From NCBI RefSeq assembly GCF_963921235.1, contig NC_086108.1:60824001-60888000 (forward strand): a DNA stretch of 64,000 nt, given 5' to 3'. How positions within the stretch are numbered: position 1 is the first letter of the stretch; each line of letters begins with the position of its first letter. The notes beneath the pieces were generated by a model. It did no database searches, was not told the origin of the DNA, and was given only the letters and a program-made list of their open reading frames with translations. This DNA comes from Mobula hypostoma. Lineage: Eukaryota. This document shows, piece by piece, positions 3,310 through 52,399 of the stretch. The translations under genes were made by a program, and so were the position numbers.

Positions 3310-4015
3310 TGACACCTTATCAAATGCCTTCTGGAAATTCAAGTATACAACATCCATCTGTTGCCCCCTACTCCTGCACTCATTATATCCTCAAAAAATT
3401 CCATTTAGTTTGCCAAACAGGATCTGCCCTTTATGAATCCGTGCTGTGTCTGCCTGATGAAACCACTTCTATCCAGCTGTCACACTACTTCTTCCTTTAT
3501 GATAACTTCAAGCACTTCCCCAACTATAGATGTTAAACTAACTGGCCTTAAGTTACCCGCCTTTTGTCTTTTTTAAAAAAACAATGGGGTGACATTCCAG
3601 CATCTGCAGATTTTCTCTTGTGCATGACATTCTCTGTTTTCCAGTCAGCCAGGACCTGCTCAGAGTCCAGATAGTTTTGGTAAATCATTACAAACGTACC
3701 TATTACAACTTGTGCCACTTTTTTCAGTACCTGGGATGCATTCCATCAGGACTAGGTACTTGTCTACTTTTAAGCCCCCTAGTTTGTTCATTACTACTTC
3801 TTTAGTGGCAAAGAGTGCATCAAGGTACTCACCTCCTATTACATCCATAACATATCTTTAGCATGTTAGATGTGTCCTCCACCATGTAGATTGATACAAA
3901 ATAGTAATTCAAGTCCTCAGCAATTTTCACATTACCCAGTATTATTTACCCGTTTTCAACTTCCAAAGGAAATACTTTCACTTTAGCCACCCTTTTCTGC
4001 TTTTTATAATTATAA
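3310..4015 (-). mobile_element. decayed CR1 ORF2 fragment
   Basis: Typical CR1 segments (gacaccttatcaaatgccttctgg; LKVDK..PG region). Confidence 0.65.
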
Positions 4016-23560: not shown

Positions 23561-24120
<560 letters not shown>

Positions 24121-24715
24121 TCCTGCCTTGCTCCACCTTCTGCCGGCTATAGTGTCACTTTCTCAGCCTGTTGTACCATCCACGAGCCCTGCTGTTCAGC
24201 TACCCCATAACCTTCTGTTCCTACGCAGTCCCCTGCTCAATCTTTCTTTCACTTCTGCACACGACTTATCCCTAACCAACTCAGAGATCCCACCCTTTTT
24301 CATGCACAACCCCTGCACCTGCCTAGTTCCCAGTCTCTTTTGACTCAGTACATCACCCCCCCCATTCACCTCCCCAACTCCTGCAGCCACGTAGTTGAAG
24401 CCCAATCCTTATTGCACAGCTCCATATTCCCTACCCTTTTGCTGACTTCCAAACACAATCCAACGTGTTTACTGTCAGTGTACGCAACTTTACCACTTTC
24501 CCCTCCACTATTTTTTACTTGTACGAGACTTGCTAAATCCTCCCTACTCTCCCCCTCCAGCTGCCTAGCTCTCCCCAATCTCTGTCATGATAACATTAAC
24601 CTGTTCTATAGTGCTTGCCAAACTTTGTTTTCTAGTTTCCTTTGAAGTATTCCTTTTAATTAGTTTTCTTTGTATGCTATCCTTACCCCAAGTAGTGTGA
24701 AGTAATTCTTGCTGA

Positions 24716-24880
<165 letters not shown>

Positions 24881-25554
24881 TGAGTAATTTTTCTGAGTTG
24901 ATTCTATAATAGGTAGATAGATGCTTTAATAATCCCAAAGGAAATTACAGTGTTACAGTAGCATTGCAAGGATACAGATGAAAAATATTAGAAGAGATGT
25001 TAGAAAGAATGAAAAATAAGTTACCTCAAACAGTGTACCAGGAGGGGATCATGACTTCCTTGGCTATAGGTTGACTTATTACAGAGCCTAATGGCTGAGG
25101 GTAAGAATGACCTCAATTAGCGCTCTTTGGAACAGTGCAGTTGTCTCAGTCTATTGCTAAAAGTGTTCCTCTGTTCAACCGAGGTGGCATGCAGAGGTCA
25201 GACCAGTTCTAGAAAACCCTGTTCAATTTCAGAGCTGCACCTCAGAAAAAAGAGATTTGTAGAAGTCGGTCAGGTTTATAGTGTGGGCCCTCTCCATATT
25301 CACCAGAATGGTTATAAAATTTAAAGATTGAAATTGAGTTTGGGTTCGATAAACTTGGTTTAAATAAACATGGGTTTGGAAGGTTTGATGGATGGTAAAA
25401 GTGTTTAAAATGACAGTTCCTGATCTTTATTGATGGAGGACAATGCTGATATTAGCAGACGGTATTTAGTATTGAAACGCGATAAGCACATTTTCCCAAA
25501 GGGATGGTTGAAATTTGAAAACGAGAGAAAATTTGCCGAAGTTGGAAATCAAAC

Positions 25555-25722
25555 CAGTGCATGAAAAATGCTGGAGGAACTCAGTAGGCCAGAGAGCATC
25601 TATAGAAAACAGTAAACAATTCGACGTTTCAGGATGAAGGGTCTCGGCCTGAAATGTTAGCTGTTTACTCTTTTCCATAGATGCTGCCTGGCTTGCTGAG
25701 TTCCTCCAGTATTTTGTGTGTA
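25555..25722. repeat. Penelope-derived terminal-repeat remnant (fold-back)
   Basis: aaaatgctggaggaactcag...gctgagttcctccagtatttt form inverted arms around a degenerate hammerhead-like core. Confidence 0.6.
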
Positions 25723-27088
25723 TAGACATATTGTCTAATGAGGAAAGGTTAGACTGGTTAAACTTGAATCTGCTGGAGTTTAATTGAATCATAAGATTCT
25801 GAGGGGCTTTGAGAGTCTGGATATGGAGAAGATGTTTTGTCATGTGAGACGTCTTTAGGTTATGTTGGTTGTTAATACAGGCGATGCATTTCACTGCATG
25901 TTTCAATGTACATATGATAAATAAATGAATCTGAAAATCTAGAAATAGGATTCACTGCTTAAAAGTAAGGTGTTAACTATTTAAGAAAGATGAGGTTTTT
26001 TCCTAATGGTTGTAAGCCTTTTGAAGTCAATTCCCAAAGGTTAATGGAAGCAGTCTTTGAATATTTTTAAGTCTGAGCGAATAGATACTTGCTAAAGCAA
26101 AGAGGATAAAGATTTAAAGGTATATGTGTGAATCTACAGTTGAGGTGAGGTTGCTGTTTGATAAACCATGCAAAACTAATGAGTGGCCTAGTACAGCTGC
26201 AAATTTGAACACCGGCACCTGTTATTTGGCTTTTGATTCTACCATGTTTCTGTTCCTTGAGTTGCCATGTGTTTGGAAGTTACTCCGTATCTCCTTCATT
26301 GAGAATGCTCATGATCGTAATTTGTCACACCATGCTTTTGTTGAAGGAGTACATTTGAATTAAATCCAGTATCTCAATGTTAATATTGTGAACAGAAAAC
26401 TTCATCAAAAGTTTAGAAATGCCTTTTTATAGGATGCCCAAAACTGAATACATTTTCAAATATTTCAGACTGGTGTTACCTATTAGCTTTCATATATTTT
26501 AAGAATGAGCTTGGATGTGTCATATGTTTTTCTGGCATTTTTATATCTTAATTGGTTTTTAAAATCTCTTATTTATGTACCTTGCCCTGTGTATTGAGAA
26601 TATAATTGAGGTCATATTCTCAATTCAAGTTTAAAATCTAAAGTGTGCTAGCTGGTTGGTTTACCTATAATTTCACGATTCTTTAGTTCTCTGTATTACG
26701 GGGTGCCATGTGTAAAATTAGGTGTCCTTCCTACTTTTAAATATTCTGTTGATCTTCTCTGCTTGTCTTTTTCTTTTGTTTTCACTAATTCTTCCAGTCA
26801 TTAGTATATTCATATATATTGTTGTCTATTTGTAACGTGTATCTTTTTGGCACTGTACTTGTTTTAAAGAAAAACCACCTCCAGCAGGCTCTAATTCCTG
26901 AATATTTGTTTTGTTAGAGAAACTGTAGCTACCTGATGTTTAATTTAGTTTCTTGTTTATATTCAGAATTACATATTTTGGTGTAAAAGATTTTTAATGA
27001 TTGTTGAAATAGGCAACAATTCACACATTGTAATACTGCCTGAAATCTACCATGTAGTAATGATTGTCTTCACCCAAAAATAATGGTT

Positions 27089-27262
27089 TAAACATAGGAA
27101 CATAGAAAATAGGTGCAGGAGTAGGCCATTCGGCCCTTTGAGCCTGCACTGCCATTCAGTATGATCATGGCTGATCATCCAACTCAGAACCCTGTACTTG
27201 CCTTCTCTCCATACCCCCTGATCCCTTTAGCCACAAGGGCCATAACTAACTCCCTCTTAAAA
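27089..27262 (-). mobile_element. CR1 3' end
   Basis: aacatagaaaataggtgcaggagtaggccattcggccc tail. Confidence 0.7.
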
Positions 27263-27662
27263 CTCAGGTGACTATCAAACAGCAATGTCTTGTTTATTTA
27301 AAAATGCAAACAACAGGAATTCTGCAGATGCTGGAAATTCAAGCAACACACATCAAAGTTGCTAGTGAACGCAGCAGGCCAGGCAGCATCTCTAGGAAGA
27401 GGTACAGTCGATGTTTCAGGCCGAGACCCTTCGTCACTGCGTCCGGTGCTCCCGATGTGGCCTTCTATATATTGGCGAGACCCGACGCAGACTGGGAGAC
27501 CGCTTTGCTGAACACCTACGCTCTGTCCGCCAGAGAAAGCAGGATCTCCCAGTGGCCACACATTTTAATTCCGCATCCCATTCCCATTCTGATATGTCTA
27601 TCCATGGCCTCCTCTACTGTAAAGATGAAGCCACACTCAGGTTGGAGGAACACCTTATATTC

Positions 27663-27694
27663 CTGACGAAGGGTCTCGGCCTGAAACGTCGACT
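27663..27694 (+). ncRNA. minimal hammerhead ribozyme motif 1
   Basis: CTGACGA-A-GGGT ctcg GCCT-GAAA-C-GTC-GACT; the 5' strand of stem I is truncated. Confidence 0.6.
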
Positions 27695-27802
27695 ATCACT
27701 TGTCCAGCTCTTCGCTCCATCCCTCCCCTTCCTGTCTTCTCCTATCATTTTGGATTCCCCCCCCCCCACCACTTTTAAATCTCTTACTAACTCTTCCTTC
27801 AG

Positions 27803-27840
27803 TTAGTCCTGACGAAGGGTCTCGGCCTGAAACGTTGACT
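27803..27840 (+). ncRNA. minimal hammerhead ribozyme motif 2
   Basis: ttAGTC-CTGACGA-A-GGGT ctcg GCCT-GAAA-C-GTT-GACT; stem I is AGTC/GACT. Confidence 0.65.
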
Positions 27841-28931
27841 GTAGCTCTTCCTAGAGACGCTGCCTGGCCTGCTGTGTTCACCAGCAACTTTAATGTGTGT
27901 TGCATGTCTTGTTTATTGTTTTTTTCTATGGAGGAGGGTCCTTGTTAGTGGGACTGCTCTCTGGAGCTGAGAATCAAATACCACCTTCTGCATATCAGAA
28001 AACCTGCTTTCAAATGAATTTGAATCCATAGATGTTCATACTTGTCCTTATAATTCTGTCCTGATTTATGTGCAATAATTTGTATATGCATTAAAAGCAT
28101 CCAAGGTGCTACACAGGAGATATGAGGGCAGATGAGTAGAGGGAACTTTCGAGGACCTCTTTTTAATCCTTTAATATGCATCTCAAAATGACCTTAAAGT
28201 GGAGCTAAACTGCCGTTGTAAGTCACAGGCACCCTTTTGGTGATGGCCTTCTCACATTACTGCTAGGTAAACAGGAAAGAATCGCAGCACATTTCCAAGC
28301 TTGTGAAACCTGCACCTGCTGCCCTTAGTAGTAGTAATGGTATAGGATTGTGAGCTGCTGTTGACTAAACTTGTGATTTATTGCTGTATGTTGATTGAAT
28401 CAACTAACGTCAGGGACAAGTACATGAAGGGTGAGGGGCTTTTGTATTTAGAGTGGGTGTTGAAAAGGGTACTAAATAAGATACGATATATACGATAACA
28501 AGACTTTCATGATTTGGAAGTAGGTCACTTGTTGAAGAACATACATCCTCCTGAGGAATTGGGTGTTGTAGTGTGGGAAAAATGTTCAATGAGGAAATTT
28601 ATAATTAATACCCTTAATAATTAAAGCTTGTTATATTCAAACTTCTTTGCTATAATAAATGTGGCTTGGGTTTTGTGTTCATTGGTAGAATCTGATTTAT
28701 TACTACTGACGTATGTCATGAAATTTGTTGTATTGTGCACCAGTACAATGTAGGACGTAAAAAAATACTATGAATTGCTATAAGAAATAAAATAATTCCA
28801 AAATGTAAAGTGAGGCAATGTACATGAGTTTATGGATCTTTCAGAAATCTGGTGGAGGGGAAGAAATTTCTTGAAGTATTATTGAGTGTGCGCCTTCAGG
28901 TTCCTGTATAGTGTTCACCGATTATCTCAAA

Positions 28932-29551
28932 GGCTGGAGGAGGAGATAGCAGTGCGCCGTGCGTGCGCAGCCCTCCGGTGAAATGATATCGTATCCATTA
29001 AATAGGGGCCGTGGACAATTCTGATTTGATGGAGACAGACGTGAAAGCACAGAGGAACATCTGGAGAAGTTTCTGAAACGCAGGTTCGCTGCTGTTGTTA
29101 CTGCGTGATTCAGAATCTTCCAGAGGGAAGGCCTCAAAATCCCCTGCTTTGCCTGCTGTTGGTGACCGAGATGAAGGTCGAATTGTTTGGATAGAGATGG
29201 TGCTCGGTACTCGGTATCGGAGAGCTGATCGGAGGCTCGATGTTTTCGGACGACTCAGAGTTGGACTGTGGTCGGGCATGGCAGGGAGAGTTTTTCTTCC
29301 TTCTCCCTTCTGCATGAGATGTGGGACATTTGAGAGACTGAACTTTTTACTGTGCCATGGACTGTTCTTCATCAAGTTATGGTATTGTTGCTCTGTTGTA
29401 ACTATATGTTATAATTATGTGGTTTTGTTAAGTTTTTTCAGTCTTGGTCTGTCCTGTGTTTTGTGATATCACACCGGAGGAAATATTGTATCATTTCTTA
29501 ATGCATGCACTACTAAATGACAATAAAAGAGGACTGCATGTCTTCATAATC
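28932..29551 (+). mobile_element. short non-autonomous retroelement, copy 3 (prkaa2 intron 2)
   Basis: Collinear with the reverse complement of 6385-7005. Confidence 0.85.
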
Positions 29552-30207
29552 TAAAAAAAAGAAAGCTGCCCATAAAATTTTATGGTGTTGATTTCCTTAA
29601 TTGCAGTGCAACATATGGTCTAATGTATCCTGAGTGTGGGGGTGGGGGAAGGTGAGTGTCATATTAAAACAATAATATCATCAAGAAACTGAACAGACAG
29701 TCAGGTTGACAATTTCTCTCTCAGCAGTTCAGGAAGTAAAATGAGCAGATTTCGATTAGATTTTTACTCATTTTATACAAAATAAAGATTGGGACAAGCA
29801 TGAGATGAAGGTAGTTAATATATTTAAAATTAAAATAATATTAAAACATTAAAATTTTAAAATCTTGGAATAGAGAGAATAGCATTCAACATTATTAAAT
29901 CATTTTGATGGGACCAGTGAGATTTTCCTGTATTAGTTATTACTTAAGATCTGAACTATCCATTATTGAATAATGTTTAGAAATACCAACATTTTCACAG
30001 CAAGGATAGAAGTTAACAGATCATTACCTTTACATTGATTACATCTGCAAAAGCTACAGAAGTGCTCCCTGTAGAAAATCAGGGTATCATCAATGGCATC
30101 CTCTGTTGTTTACTGGAAGTTTCTGTCAATTTTACACTTTGTGAGTTCTTGCACTTTTGTTGTCACTTACAATGGCTAATTTCAGGCCAATTATTTACAT
30201 TTCCTGA

Positions 30208-30441
<234 letters not shown>

Positions 30442-30876
30442 TAGGATTGCATGTGTCATTTTTTTTTCATCCGTTCAACCTATTGGTAGATAGACAGGAA
30501 TTCATGTTCTTAATTTCCTTGGTGATATGTGTAACTGTTTCAATCCATAACTGCAAACTAATCTGTAAATCCTGCCATTGACAAATGGTTTTGTGAATAT
30601 ACCTAAGATGCAGTCTTACAAAGAAATCTATCTACTGTATAATTTTTTTTTGCCACCTTATATGCTCTTGCTTCCCCAAATTTTCCAACTGACTGCTAAA
30701 AATAATCCTCTCTCAATTTAGAAAAGAACCTTCAAAGGAGAGTGGGTAATTTTCAACATTCATGTTGGTGTTTATGCAAGAGTATTTTGTGTGACTTTCC
30801 TGCATTAATGTTATTTATTTCTGTAACTGATTTCGGACCTTCTGCTGTGATAATGCCCGTTTTCACTTTGCTGTAG

Positions 30877-31026
<150 letters not shown>

Positions 31027-32049
31027 TGACCCCTGGGGCATGTGGAGAATGTGTCAGACAGCAGTTAAATGTTCCAGAGCTGTGAAGTTATGTTTTCAGC
31101 CAAGTGTGTCAAGAATACAAGACACAACTCTTAAGTTGTTTCACGCAGGTGTTATAATATAGTATGAAGTGCAATGGTCATTGGTAATTGGTAGATAAAA
31201 TGGGTTGCCATCACTGGTGCATTATAAATAAATATTTTTATCTGCCTGTGGTAATTGGAGTTTGTGAATAAGGATTTGAATATTTGGGGAATTTGAAACT
31301 GTTTTGTAATGAGAGAGATCTTATTCTGTCTGCTGCAATCATCTATTAGAACGTGGCATAAACATATTTTGCTTATCTTATTTCTGTCGCTCTGGAATAG
31401 ATTTTGAGACTGCGTAATTTTAATTTGTGAATGGGAATGTCCCATGGCAGTGAAGGTTGATTATATTAGTCAAGTGATTTTAAGACCACAGTAACAATTT
31501 TTATATGCTTCCTTGATGCACGTGTTCTATGCTTAGCCCAGCAGCACCTGAGCTTTTGGGTAAATGCAATTAAATACTCAGTATGAACCTAATTTGTGAA
31601 GAATCTTCTGCAATCAGAGATAATTCATAATTTGGGAAGACCTGGAGAGAAAATGTGGAAAATCCAATTAGATGATTACACCATTATAAGACTGTTGCAG
31701 AAAATTGAGAATTTTATTTTAGAAAAGACCGGAAGTTCATTTTCAGACAAACAAATGTAAAGAACATGTTTCTGCCTGGAATGCAGAGTCATTAGTGGAA
31801 ATTGATAAGATTTTGAAGCAAAAAGAAAATGGCATTTGATATTTGGTCATGTTTCATTGCAAATGTTAATTACATGAAGATTTTTTTTTGTTCAAATTAG
31901 AAAAAAACAAAAGTGGAAAATGGTGTAAATGGACTTGTGAAAGATGCTACCTACATTTTTTTTTTGTTTATTGCTGTAATATGAAGAATTTATGTCTGGA
32001 ATACAAATCTCAAGGAGCGTAGCATAACTTAAAAGGACCCAGCTGCTGA

Positions 32050-47271: not shown

Positions 47272-49443
47272 AAAACGTGCTTTCAATTTGATGACAAATC
47301 AGCTCTTTAACCCGTAAAGGTGTGAAAGAAAATGCCTTTTCTACTTTGCAAAACTCTTGAGTAATTGTTATTTATAGTTCTGGTTTGCAGCTGGTGCTTT
47401 TGCTACCTTGATATGGTGGAAGCTCAGAGCAATATTTGCTCATTGCCATCTAGAAACTCTACAGGCATAGAGTGGCGTTTAAGTTGAATTTCTTTTTGCC
47501 AGCCAAATCCATAGGATTATACGGGTTTATCAACAACTGTAAAAGTGTAGAAAAGCATCAAATTTCATTTTTAAAGTGATGTACTTTAGAATGTTAAAAG
47601 TTGGTGGTAATGTAAAAGAACAGATGAGATGTATTTAATGATTTGTTGTAGCGCCAGGATTGTTCACATGATGTGTTGGTGGACAGAATGAGTGCATTTA
47701 CTCATAAACCAAGTTGTGAGCAGTTGAGATGTGAATTTCTATTCAGGATAGTGTGGCTTGAAAGCTATAAAAACAAATTGGATCATAAAATTAGGTAACT
47801 GAAGTGTGAGCTGGCTGTTGTGTACAATTATAAAGGTTTAGTGTCATTTTATTGCTGAGAAGGATTAAGTTTACTTGAATAGAAATGTAAACAACAGAAA
47901 TTATTCCATGTATCAAATAGTGTGTGATCTTTGGGTTAAAGTGTGAACACTCCTTTGAAAGTATCTTCTTGTGTGAGGATTTCTCTTAAGCACACCTTTT
48001 AACTGATTAAGTCAGCAGCATGCACAGCTAGATGTAGTTGATCATTTGCTGATTTACTTATAACATTTACTGTATCTTTATGGTACGACTGGGATTACGT
48101 TCAAAATGATCACAAATGGCCTGTTGCGCTAAACAAAGATCTCCAATCAGTTCCCATTAGTGGCAATTATGATTAACATTTTGTTTTTGTTAGATCTCAC
48201 TATCGGCTTGGTAAGATCTAGAAAATGTTCATTTTCAAATTAACGTCAAACAACTTTAAGGCAAAACTGCAGGTATTGGAATTTGGAACATCAGAGCATT
48301 GTAAGAATTTAGTAGGTCAAATAGGTGTAAGTGAACATTTCGAGTAATCACCCTCTCCCCATCTGATACCAGCCTCTTCCCACTAGCCCACCCCCACATA
48401 CTCCTATATACTGGCAATCTCTCGCCTTCTCTCTCAGGTCTGATGCAGGGTTTCGACCCGAAATGTCAACTTACATCTTTTGCTTCCATATATTGCTTAC
48501 CTACTGAGTTCTTCCAGTGTTCACTTGAAACAAGTTTAAGATTAATTTTCTAATGCAAGACAGGATAACTTAAACCAATAATGCCCCAAAAATTGGCTTC
48601 CCTTTGATTGGATAGTTTTCTTGCTGTAGATTTATTTTTCAGTTATTTTCAGCTTATTTCTTTCACTGTCACAGGCTTAGTGACTCTACCTAATGGCATT
48701 GCCATTAATTTGAATTTTAAGTCAAAAATTGAGTCTTGATGGTGAGATTACCTCTAATGTATTCAGTGCAAGTATTTGTAATAGGCAGTTATTTATTTTC
48801 CAAGAATATACAGTATTCTGGGCCTAAAAATGCAAGCATTTGCATACGAGCATTAAGTTGAGATTTTAGCCAAGATTCTACTGGGTGAATTCTAGCTTCT
48901 GCCTTTAATCTTGTGCAGGTTGGTACTGGGGGCATAATGTATGAAAATTTTTTATAGTGGGCACGTATTATGGTTCACAAAGTCAAACGGTACAAGCCAA
49001 GTAAGATGGAGCGGGAACACAATAGCACTTTCAGATAAAAGATTTGTTAGCTCCTACCTGTCTTTTGTTTTACCAATTAGGCAATATTTTGGAAGAAAGA
49101 AGGTCCTTCTGTTGTTCTTGAAGAATGTGCAAAATGTGCCCCCACCCTCCCAGTAAATGGAGCTCTCTGCTGCTGTTTTCTGTTGCAAAGACTACACCCT
49201 CCTCATTAGCAGATACCTTGTGATGGCAAGGAGCAATGACACTGGCATAGTAATATTATGGTTGATATTTTATGTAAAGTACAAACCTTCATCTGATATT
49301 AAGCTAGTTAATCACAAACTTGTAAGGCCATCACATTTATTTTATAGCTAATCTGATGAAAGATTTTGTATTACCTAAACTATTTTCTCTATTTGAATAT
49401 CAAATTTCAGAGCCAAAGATGTTCCATAAATTTCCTAGGTATT

Positions 49444-51220: not shown

Positions 51221-52399
51221 GCACAAAGTAAGCGAGATGGGACTGGCCAGAAGAGAGTGGAGAAGTCAAGGTGGTGGTTGCAGTATTGACAGTTGGGATT
51301 AAAATTGTCAAGAGAGAATAAAGGGCCAGAAAGTAGTGTCCAAGAGGAGGTGGTGTTAGAATTGGGAGAAAGGGTCAGCATTGTGGAGGGAGGGGATGGG
51401 GAAAGAAAGAGGGGTTGAGGGGGTTGGAGTGGTGTTTACCAAATGGGTATGGATACAGTTCAAAAGACAGATCTTGGCCTGAAACATCGACTGTTCATTA
51501 CTCTCTGCAGATACAGCCTAATATGTTGAGTTCCTCCAGCAGTTTGATTTTTGCTCAATATTATGTAAATGCTATTTGGATCGCCAATGCCACTTATTGT
51601 CTAGATTTTACATTCTGAATGTCAGAGGCATTCATATATTTACATGTGCTATGAAATTTGACAGCCAATGAATGTGGGGGTCCAGAGATTTGTCAGCTGT
51701 CAGTTTTCAGAGATATTTGAGTCTTTGCTGCGGGCTTCAGTACAAGCTTTGAAACACATTGTGGCTGCAATATTTTTTCTCTTTATCTGTATTAAGCAAA
51801 TTCAAGAAAGAGAATACTGAGGTGTGACCAGTGTTGGTGCCATGCAAGCCTGTATATTTACGTTAAATTTAAAGTTGGATGAGCAATGCTGCATTTTTTA
51901 AAAAATCTATCAGAACAACTCTGACAACCATGTAATTTTATTCAGCAAAGGAAATGCATGTTTCCTATGTAATTCCAAAATCTTCAGTAATTAGGATATT
52001 AGTTAAAACTTAATAGTTATGTGCTGTATCTTTTTTTTGGTAATTTATGTGTTCAGTGAGGATTATTGCAATTTTTTAAAGAAGTACTATTTTAACAAGC
52101 TAAGAAAAACTGATTTTTTTTTTAGATAACACTAACCTGAATTCATATTTGCATGATTCACATATGAACATACTTTTGAGTTAGAAATTCATTTGTAAGT
52201 GTTTTGATGGATGAGTGATTTCCCAAATAGCTAGTATGGAACTATGCTAATTGGAAATAATATTTAATAATGCCCATTAAATCAGGTTACTGTCTTAATG
52301 CTTAGTGTCAAAATTCCTAAAGAATTTGAATGTAAATACATCTTAATGGCAAAATGTTGCAAGAACAATAAACGATATTTAGCACTGGTCAACTGATAG

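Follow-up and report, generated by a model that had tools for sequence, protein, structure and literature searches.

Intron 2 of the AMPK alpha-2 gene (prkaa2) of Mobula hypostoma carries two minimal hammerhead ribozyme motifs in tandem on its sense strand, and the locus raises the question of whether the pre-mRNA of this gene can cut itself there. The original prediction, made for the stretch of 64,000 nucleotides of contig NC_086108.1 that is analysed here (the window), was that neither motif can act alone but that the two could pair with each other, leading to self-cleavage within the intron or to release of an RNA of about 146 nt. The reading that we favour, with a probability of roughly 80%, is that the locus is a truncated Penelope-like insertion in which a single rearrangement event likely doubled the hammerhead, and that its RNA, by prediction, forms a hairpin of about 95 bp that would keep the ribozyme silent and likely inert.

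The host gene was identified from its coding exons. Exon 2 (24740-24880) matched the solved AMPK alpha-2 chains at 46 of 47 residues with 84.7 bits, compared with 78.4 bits for alpha-1. The single mismatch in this exon is an Arg, in GEHQLTRHK, at a position where the solved alpha-2 chains have Gly (GEHQLTGHK). Both motifs are on the + strand inside the intron that follows, so the orientation originally proposed for them, the same as that of the AMPK pre-mRNA, is confirmed. They are part of a 605-bp Penelope-like insertion, which runs from 27299 to 27903 and is flanked by an exact 14-bp target-site duplication (Table 1).

Table 1. Features of prkaa2 intron 2 and of the Penelope-like insertion, in window coordinates
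Feature	Position	Strand	Basis or description
prkaa2 intron 2, GT...AG	24880..30236	+	Exon translations and borders; lies between coding exons 2 and 3
Target-site duplication, left copy, 14 bp	27285..27298	+	Exact 14-nt direct repeat
Inverted, 5'-truncated terminal-repeat arm with long tail at its end	27299..27436	-	97% identity to sibling L004 over 134 nt
3' piece of element ORF (GIY-YIG endonuclease)	27437..27663	+	Pfam PF01541, E 1.9e-4
Hammerhead copy 1	27663..27694	+	Core, stem II, ACGU palindrome and GUC intact; own stem I 5' arm missing
Native terminal-repeat (pLTR) segment, 114 nt	27695..27808	+	Siblings; predicted structure; would serve as the 108-nt loop of the hybrid site
Hammerhead copy 2, native motif of the element	27804..27841	+	5-bp stem I, intact core, GUU triplet
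Element 3' end, at the short-tail position	27842..27903	+	Sibling 3' ends
Target-site duplication, right copy, 14 bp	27904..27917	+	Exact repeat; organism C contig bridges the whole insertion

The piece of element ORF retained in the insertion is 227 nt long, stops short of the stop codon, and has at its end the sequence that serves as target for self-insertion. Its match to the Pfam GIY-YIG profile, at 22.1 bits (E 1.9e-4), is slightly below the cut-off of 22.6. Because this piece is 98.7% identical to its best sibling, with a median of 97.4% over 29 siblings, the insertion is young. Copy 1 sits in place of approximately 238 nt of native terminal repeat. The original prediction had also placed an inverted copy at 27343-27436; an inverted copy is indeed present, but it is longer than was thought and extends from 27299 to 27436. 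It carries a hammerhead remnant of its own (27406-27436), which is dead, lacking C3 and the 5' arm of stem I and having a broken palindrome. The inverted arm pairs with both of the sense copies, and at 27340-27436 it complements 27810-27906 at 92%.

Related sequences were seen elsewhere in the window. An older two-armed element of a related family lies in the same intron at 25565-25715, with 54-nt arms that are 87% complementary and a decayed hammerhead between them, and older, more diverged pieces of related terminal repeats are found at 51470-51550 and 3595-3625. Just before copy 2, the sense strand at 27780-27808 resembles a splice acceptor, with TACTAAC, a short pyrimidine tract, and AG at 27801-27802 and 27805-27806. 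An intron belonging to the element itself may terminate in this stretch, which may also be a cryptic acceptor within prkaa2 intron 2; the distance from branch point to AG is short (12-16 nt). In the Penelope element of Drosophila virilis an intron is described as terminating at helix I (PMC4209133).

The two motifs were found where they had been predicted, on the + strand, their C3 residues at 27663 and 27809 being separated by 146 nt. Apart from position 17, which is C in copy 1 and T in copy 2, the copies do not differ across offsets -2 to +31. In both copies the core (C3-U4-G5-A6-N7-G8-A9, G12-A13-A14-A15.1, U16.1 and H17) is intact, and an ACGU palindrome occupies positions 15.2-16.2 with no true stem III. 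The extra A after A9 is borne out as well, being present at offset +7 in both copies, and is described as conserved in PMC4209133. Stem I has 5 bp in copy 2 and in the hybrid site formed between the copies; in copy 1 it is reduced to 2 bp, a U-C mismatch and three further pairs. Stem II is closed in both copies by a G-U pair and not by G-C, while the G10.1-C11.1 pair at the base of this stem is called highly conserved in PMC4209133. Among 42 unselected motifs of the family, position 11.1 is U in 35, C in 6 and G in 1; since the G-U closing pair is thus a family-wide trait, we regard it as a variant of the motif and not as damage at this locus. An intact core, the palindrome, a 5-bp stem I, the stems and GUC are all combined in 24 of the 42 family motifs, but in neither window copy, so that both are damaged relative to the typical member of the family. 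A scan of 24000-32000 against Rfam at E values up to 1 gave no matches, a result that is uninformative because minimal motifs lack stem III.

Position N7 is C in 37 of the 42 unselected motifs. A family motif with C at this position (L004:2076-2115) is predicted to fold on itself, its core GACG pairing with the CGUC of the cut site, in what would be a built-in off-state.

Across the 3.48-Gb genome, a 34-nt pattern describing the family motif was matched exactly at 48,191 places, on average every 72 kb, whereas a reversed control gave no match, which puts the motif far beyond chance. It is located 110-122 nt past the same pLTR landmark in 28 siblings and is the standard terminal-repeat ribozyme of the family. 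One sibling (L020) has an ORF of 593 amino acids that matches RVT_1 (E 1.7e-5, below the cut-off) and then, at its C-terminus, GIY-YIG (E 4.9e-5, above the cut-off). The identity first proposed for the two copies, namely minimal hammerheads of a GIY-YIG Penelope-like element, is supported. Between reverse transcriptase and endonuclease the sibling ORF contains a CX4CxxC linker, CKRNKCYTC. A CX2-5CxxC linker marks Neptune and Nematis elements (PMC8557442), which suggests a placement with these elements that is read from the linker motif alone and not from a tree. 5' truncation, an adjacent inverted copy and a tail on one side only are typical of such elements according to PMC8557442, and the two tail lengths seen in the family fit the two reverse-transcription starts shown for an anole element (PMC11167929).

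Two-armed insertions are common in the family: among the first 100 matches listed, motifs within 1 kb of each other formed seven pairs on opposite strands and none on the same strand. Short copies tend to have their 5' ends near the outer hammerhead boundary, with 7 of 36 arms beginning between -12 and -2 among the first exact matches (L037-L066), and 11 of 28 5' ends between -4 and +4 at nested sites (L138-L157). The inverted arm of the window (27436) and copy 1 (27661-27664) both begin at this edge.

To trace the origin of the tandem, 29 siblings picked by DNA search were compared with the window insertion. In 28 of them, the place taken in the window by copy 1 (31 nt) holds 220-248 nt of native repeat. 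The remaining sibling (L002) was considered as a second tandem and rejected, having a different deletion and only one hammerhead. The right junction of copy 1 has a single match in the 3.48-Gb genome, whether searched exactly or with a gap of 0-12 nt allowed, and the left junction is found at five places including the window. Three of the four other left-junction sites are nested inserts, in which a short copy made up of hammerhead plus tail interrupts the ORF end of a second copy and is followed by a repeat of the target. Exact tail-to-target joins number 35 genome-wide. Of 20 that were fetched, 12 had the target duplicated within 220 nt and 4 had the target joined straight to the start of the hammerhead; same-strand hammerhead pairs, 433-537 nt apart, were present in 6, with both motifs intact in one. 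The family inserts into itself at one AT-rich site in its own ORF end (loci L138-L157, L033, L034 and L036), the short cases having target duplications of 12-13 nt. The locus with both motifs intact (L146, C12:168004675-168007695) has two same-strand hammerheads 494 nt apart, and is a cleaner test case than the window pair, although it too has an inverted copy upstream.

The tandem is private to this locus and not part of the family's design, and it most likely arose by nested self-insertion followed by a deletion. Copy 1 would have begun as a short hammerhead-plus-tail copy that inserted at the ORF-end target of a second element, and its present distance of 146 nt from the native motif would stem from a later loss of some 350 nt across a 2-nt (CT) microhomology. 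The CT at the right junction is present in 20 of the 28 siblings. Double template switching during a single insertion would give the identical sequence outcome. Splicing was rejected as the source of the left junction of copy 1: if the GT that follows the ORF-end site were joined to the AG preceding the motif, two TCC triplets would remain, whereas only one is present in the window.

The age of the insertion was approached by comparing assembled contigs of four runs over 26500-28700. In a related species (organism C), a contig of 1375 nt aligns with 26590-27089 and with 27909-28700, two parts that are separated in it by about 36 nt, and differs from the window at 24 of 500 and 38 of 792 bases, so that the flanks are about 5% diverged. 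Because a single contig spans both flanks with only these 36 nt between, the insertion and the neighbouring repeat are absent in organism C; the empty site is represented by one contig from one run. The insertion is therefore not conserved at the orthologous site and, on this comparison of contigs, is lineage-specific. Two samples of organism A have contigs across the 3' junction, and one of these samples may be the source of the assembly. Among the contigs listed, none of organism B reaches the right flank. None of the runs is recorded as RNA; in one presumed to be so the junction contig has a depth of 4.4, contigs being a form of data that does not report RNA ends. The neighbouring repeat (27090-27261) is a high-copy fragment 37 nt upstream of the insertion; organism B apparently has it, organism C does not, and it presumably resembles the 3' end of a cartilaginous-fish SINE or LINE.

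The dimer geometry originally put forward holds for one of its two sites. The pairings were correct base by base: the two ACGU palindromes are complementary to each other, UAGUC of copy 2 forms 5 bp with GACUA of copy 1, and a GUC triplet lies immediately before 27690/27691. At this site (site X) the catalytic strand comes from copy 2 and the substrate strand from copy 1, and cleavage is predicted after 27690. Its stem III has 4 bp, or 5 when the A-U pair permitted by U17 of copy 2 is counted, and in cis the site has type III topology with a 108-nt loop. The geometry fails for the reciprocal site (site Y, predicted cut after 27836), where 2 bp are followed by a U-C mismatch at the third pair of stem I and then three more pairs, and the triplet is GUU. 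According to PMC3138052, mismatches close to the core are badly tolerated by hammerheads, and GUC and GUA are the preferred triplets. Release of a 146-nt RNA is unlikely because it needs site Y, with its broken stem I and GUU, and this part of the original prediction is not supported.

Whether site X could form was examined by folding with the site forced. The predicted cost was 18.7 kcal/mol in 27640-27870, 16.9 kcal/mol in 27437-27906 and 29.1 kcal/mol in the whole insertion, rising to 33.7 kcal/mol in a transcript ending just past copy 2, the first moment at which both copies exist. Forcing both sites in the whole insertion cost 71 kcal/mol. In a control with a neutral linker, an ideal family pair cost 16.5 kcal/mol and the window pair 12.5 kcal/mol. 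The ideal pair is costly too because the model lacks the tertiary energy of the core and because the single motif has the GACG/CGUC off-state. Absolute folding cost was therefore rejected as proof of inactivity, and since the model has no term for the catalytic core, only the increment of 11-12 kcal/mol due to the inverted arm is informative.

The duplexes predicted for the inverted arm have energies of -68 kcal/mol with copy 1 and -180 kcal/mol with copy 2 and the tail. Sequestration by the inverted copy, which the original prediction had named as the outcome that would count against it, is thus what folding predicts, at about 12 kcal/mol against the active fold. The inverted arm, transcribed first, would pair with copy 1 and then be taken over by copy 2. 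Site X, the sole well-formed site, can form only while copy 1 and copy 2 are unpaired at the same time; the ribozyme would therefore stay silent, and the prkaa2 intron would be spliced out uncut. In addition, a 7-bp hairpin at the end of the native segment between the copies is predicted to cover the stem I 5' arm of copy 2. Published minimal hammerheads of this kind cut weakly or depend on the element's protein. A single minimal hammerhead is reported not to cleave in vitro, and dimers to cleave weakly (PMC4209133); the anole motif is reported to cleave only with the element's protein, with no RNA-seq ends at the site (PMC11167929); and in a zebrafish intron three hammerheads other than the engineered T3H48 gave less than 3-fold mRNA knockdown (PMC11856399). 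Tandem hammerheads of vertebrate retrozymes, in axolotl, are described as cleaving efficiently as dimers (PMC7229834). As a side observation, the pre-mRNA duplex of about 95 bp predicted between 27340-27436 and 27810-27906 is a likely substrate for A-to-I editing.

Against an inert locus stands site X itself, with its intact core, GUC triplet, 5-bp stem I and stem III of 4-5 bp, and in cells the hairpin could be opened by helicases, by RNA editing or by the element's own protein. It is unlikely, but deserves consideration, that site X, helped by the element protein or a helicase, cuts a small share of prkaa2 pre-mRNA after 27690. All core bases are present and correctly paired, the modelled neutral-linker cost is below that of the ideal family pair (12.5 versus 16.5 kcal/mol), the hammerhead of a related element is activated by its protein (PMC11167929), and the site is about 2.5 kb upstream of the 3' splice site, which allows some time before splicing. 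Such leakage would nevertheless have to escape an arm that is transcribed first and, in the model, captures one copy at every stage, as well as the predicted local hairpin over the stem I arm of copy 2, and would have to do so with a G-U pair in place of the conserved G-C closing stem II and with no apparent tertiary contacts between loops I and II. The starts of genomic copies were also counted. Copies starting at the cut site numbered 445, compared with 218 at +31 and 213 at +24, an excess of only about twofold over the two control positions in a comparison of patterns that differ in length and flank letters. Thirty cut-site starts were examined, of which 25 were inverted-arm joints, 3 were small local changes and 2 were other; at the controls inverted-arm joints made up 10 of 20 and 16 of 20. 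Many of the inverted-arm joints at the cut site share letters, by eye, with the continuation of the arm. A stronger form of the idea, in which the locus is a newly arisen accidental ribozyme, a discontinuous hammerhead put together in cis from two broken Penelope halves by nested self-insertion and a deletion, so that AMPK alpha-2 pre-mRNA is cut after 27690 once editing, a helicase or the element's protein opens the hairpin, seems to us distinctly improbable.

There is only a very slight chance that both sites are cut, releasing the 146-nt unit 27691-27836 in a form that could be ligated into a circle, as in a proto-retrozyme. In the released unit the core would be complete and stem I would have all of its 5 bp, and non-LTR retrozymes have been proposed to derive from Penelope terminal repeats (bioRxiv 10.64898/2026.07.22.740005); the same source reports retrozymes in one chondrichthyan genome, with a mean unit of 363 bp. 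Yet site Y combines 2 bp, a U-C mismatch and GUU, the fold with both sites formed is predicted to cost 71 kcal/mol, and the locus holds only 1.2 units. The junction of the unit occurs once in the genome, and the unit has therefore not been amplified. We find it scarcely credible that selection has retained the pair as a regulator of prkaa2 expression or splicing, in the manner of the conserved intronic hammerheads of amniotes. The sense orientation within an intron of a key metabolic gene would suit such a regulator, and the introns of RECK, CTCL and DTNB provide precedent (PMC6155905). However, the insertion is absent in a relative whose flanks are about 5% diverged, copy 2 and the inverted copy have undergone CpG-type decay, and with one exact motif per 72 kb, sense intronic copies are to be expected in very many genes. 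A special role at prkaa2 is not supported, the tandem being a single-copy accident in a lineage-specific insertion.

If the preferred reading of a silenced insertion holds, the locus most likely matters little in itself, since the motif is already described and present in tens of thousands of copies, of which this one is rearranged and probably silent. Its value would lie in being a natural construct in which to study both cis-dimer cleavage by vertebrate minimal hammerheads and silencing by the inverted arm that is typical of these insertions. Such silencing, if true, would explain how the genome tolerates many sense intronic copies, and self-insertion into the ORF end offers a tangible way in which tandems resembling retrozymes could arise out of Penelope repeats. 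Should prkaa2 pre-mRNA be cleaved after all, a transposon accident would have given a metabolic gene of a vertebrate a functional ribozyme in one of its introns, and were the locus such a newly arisen accidental ribozyme, the 146-nt unit would show how a Penelope terminal repeat becomes the monomer of a retrozyme.

By most of the features tested, the locus carries Penelope minimal hammerheads, with a G-U closing pair that departs from the published consensus; the features tested speak against a retrozyme and against a domesticated intronic ribozyme. A literature search of partial coverage turned up no publication describing hammerheads of Penelope elements from sharks or rays; the supplementary motif alignments of PMC4209133 and bioRxiv 10.64898/2026.07.22.740005 may already include the family. 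With the minimal hammerheads of metazoan Penelope-like elements, as described by Cervera and De la Pena (2014; PMC4209133), the window motifs share the core CUGANGA...GAAA..UH with an extra nucleotide at 9/10.1, a short stem I (5 bp in copy 2 and in the hybrid site), a stem III consisting of the palindrome only, a location in the terminal repeat, a massive number of dispersed copies, and close pairs on opposite strands. They differ in that stem II has 4 bp and is closed by G-U in 35 of 42 motifs, and in that copy 1 lacks the 5' arm of stem I. Same-strand spacing also differs, being 146 nt here by private rearrangement and about 3 kb around an ORF in the published elements.

The order of reverse transcriptase and C-terminal GIY-YIG domain, and the CX4CxxC linker, both from the sibling ORF, agree with elements of the Neptune and Nematis type (Craig et al. 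2021; PMC8557442), as do 5' truncation, the adjacent inverted copy and a tail of 30-40 nt at one end only; unlike these elements, the window copy retains only 227 nt of ORF. The green anole element Poseidon PAc (Frangieh et al. 2024; PMC11167929) has in common with the family its short-tail and long-tail 3' ends, a hammerhead in the terminal repeat, and insertion into its own sequence at an AT-rich site, but belongs to a different clade, and its hammerhead overlaps the start of the ORF. Metazoan non-LTR retrozymes (Cervera and De la Pena 2020, PMC7229834; bioRxiv 10.64898/2026.07.22.740005) resemble the window pair in having closely spaced same-strand type I hammerheads, which in the window would act as a dimer, and a likely origin from Penelope. 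Retrozymes are recognised by two or more consecutive units, each holding a whole hammerhead (bioRxiv 10.64898/2026.07.22.740005). Unlike these, the window has 1.2 units, one broken site of two, a copy 1 lacking its stem I arm, no other genomic copy (the unit junction occurring once) and no apparent loops for tertiary contacts.

The intronic hammerheads of RECK, CTCL and DTNB in amniotes and the discontinuous hammerhead of Clec2 are described as complete and conserved (PMC6155905), whereas the window pair is minimal, lineage-specific and accompanied by a competing inverted arm. What the locus has in common with them is a sense position in a host transcript and, as in Clec2, a discontinuous layout, in which site X would have type III topology and a long loop I.
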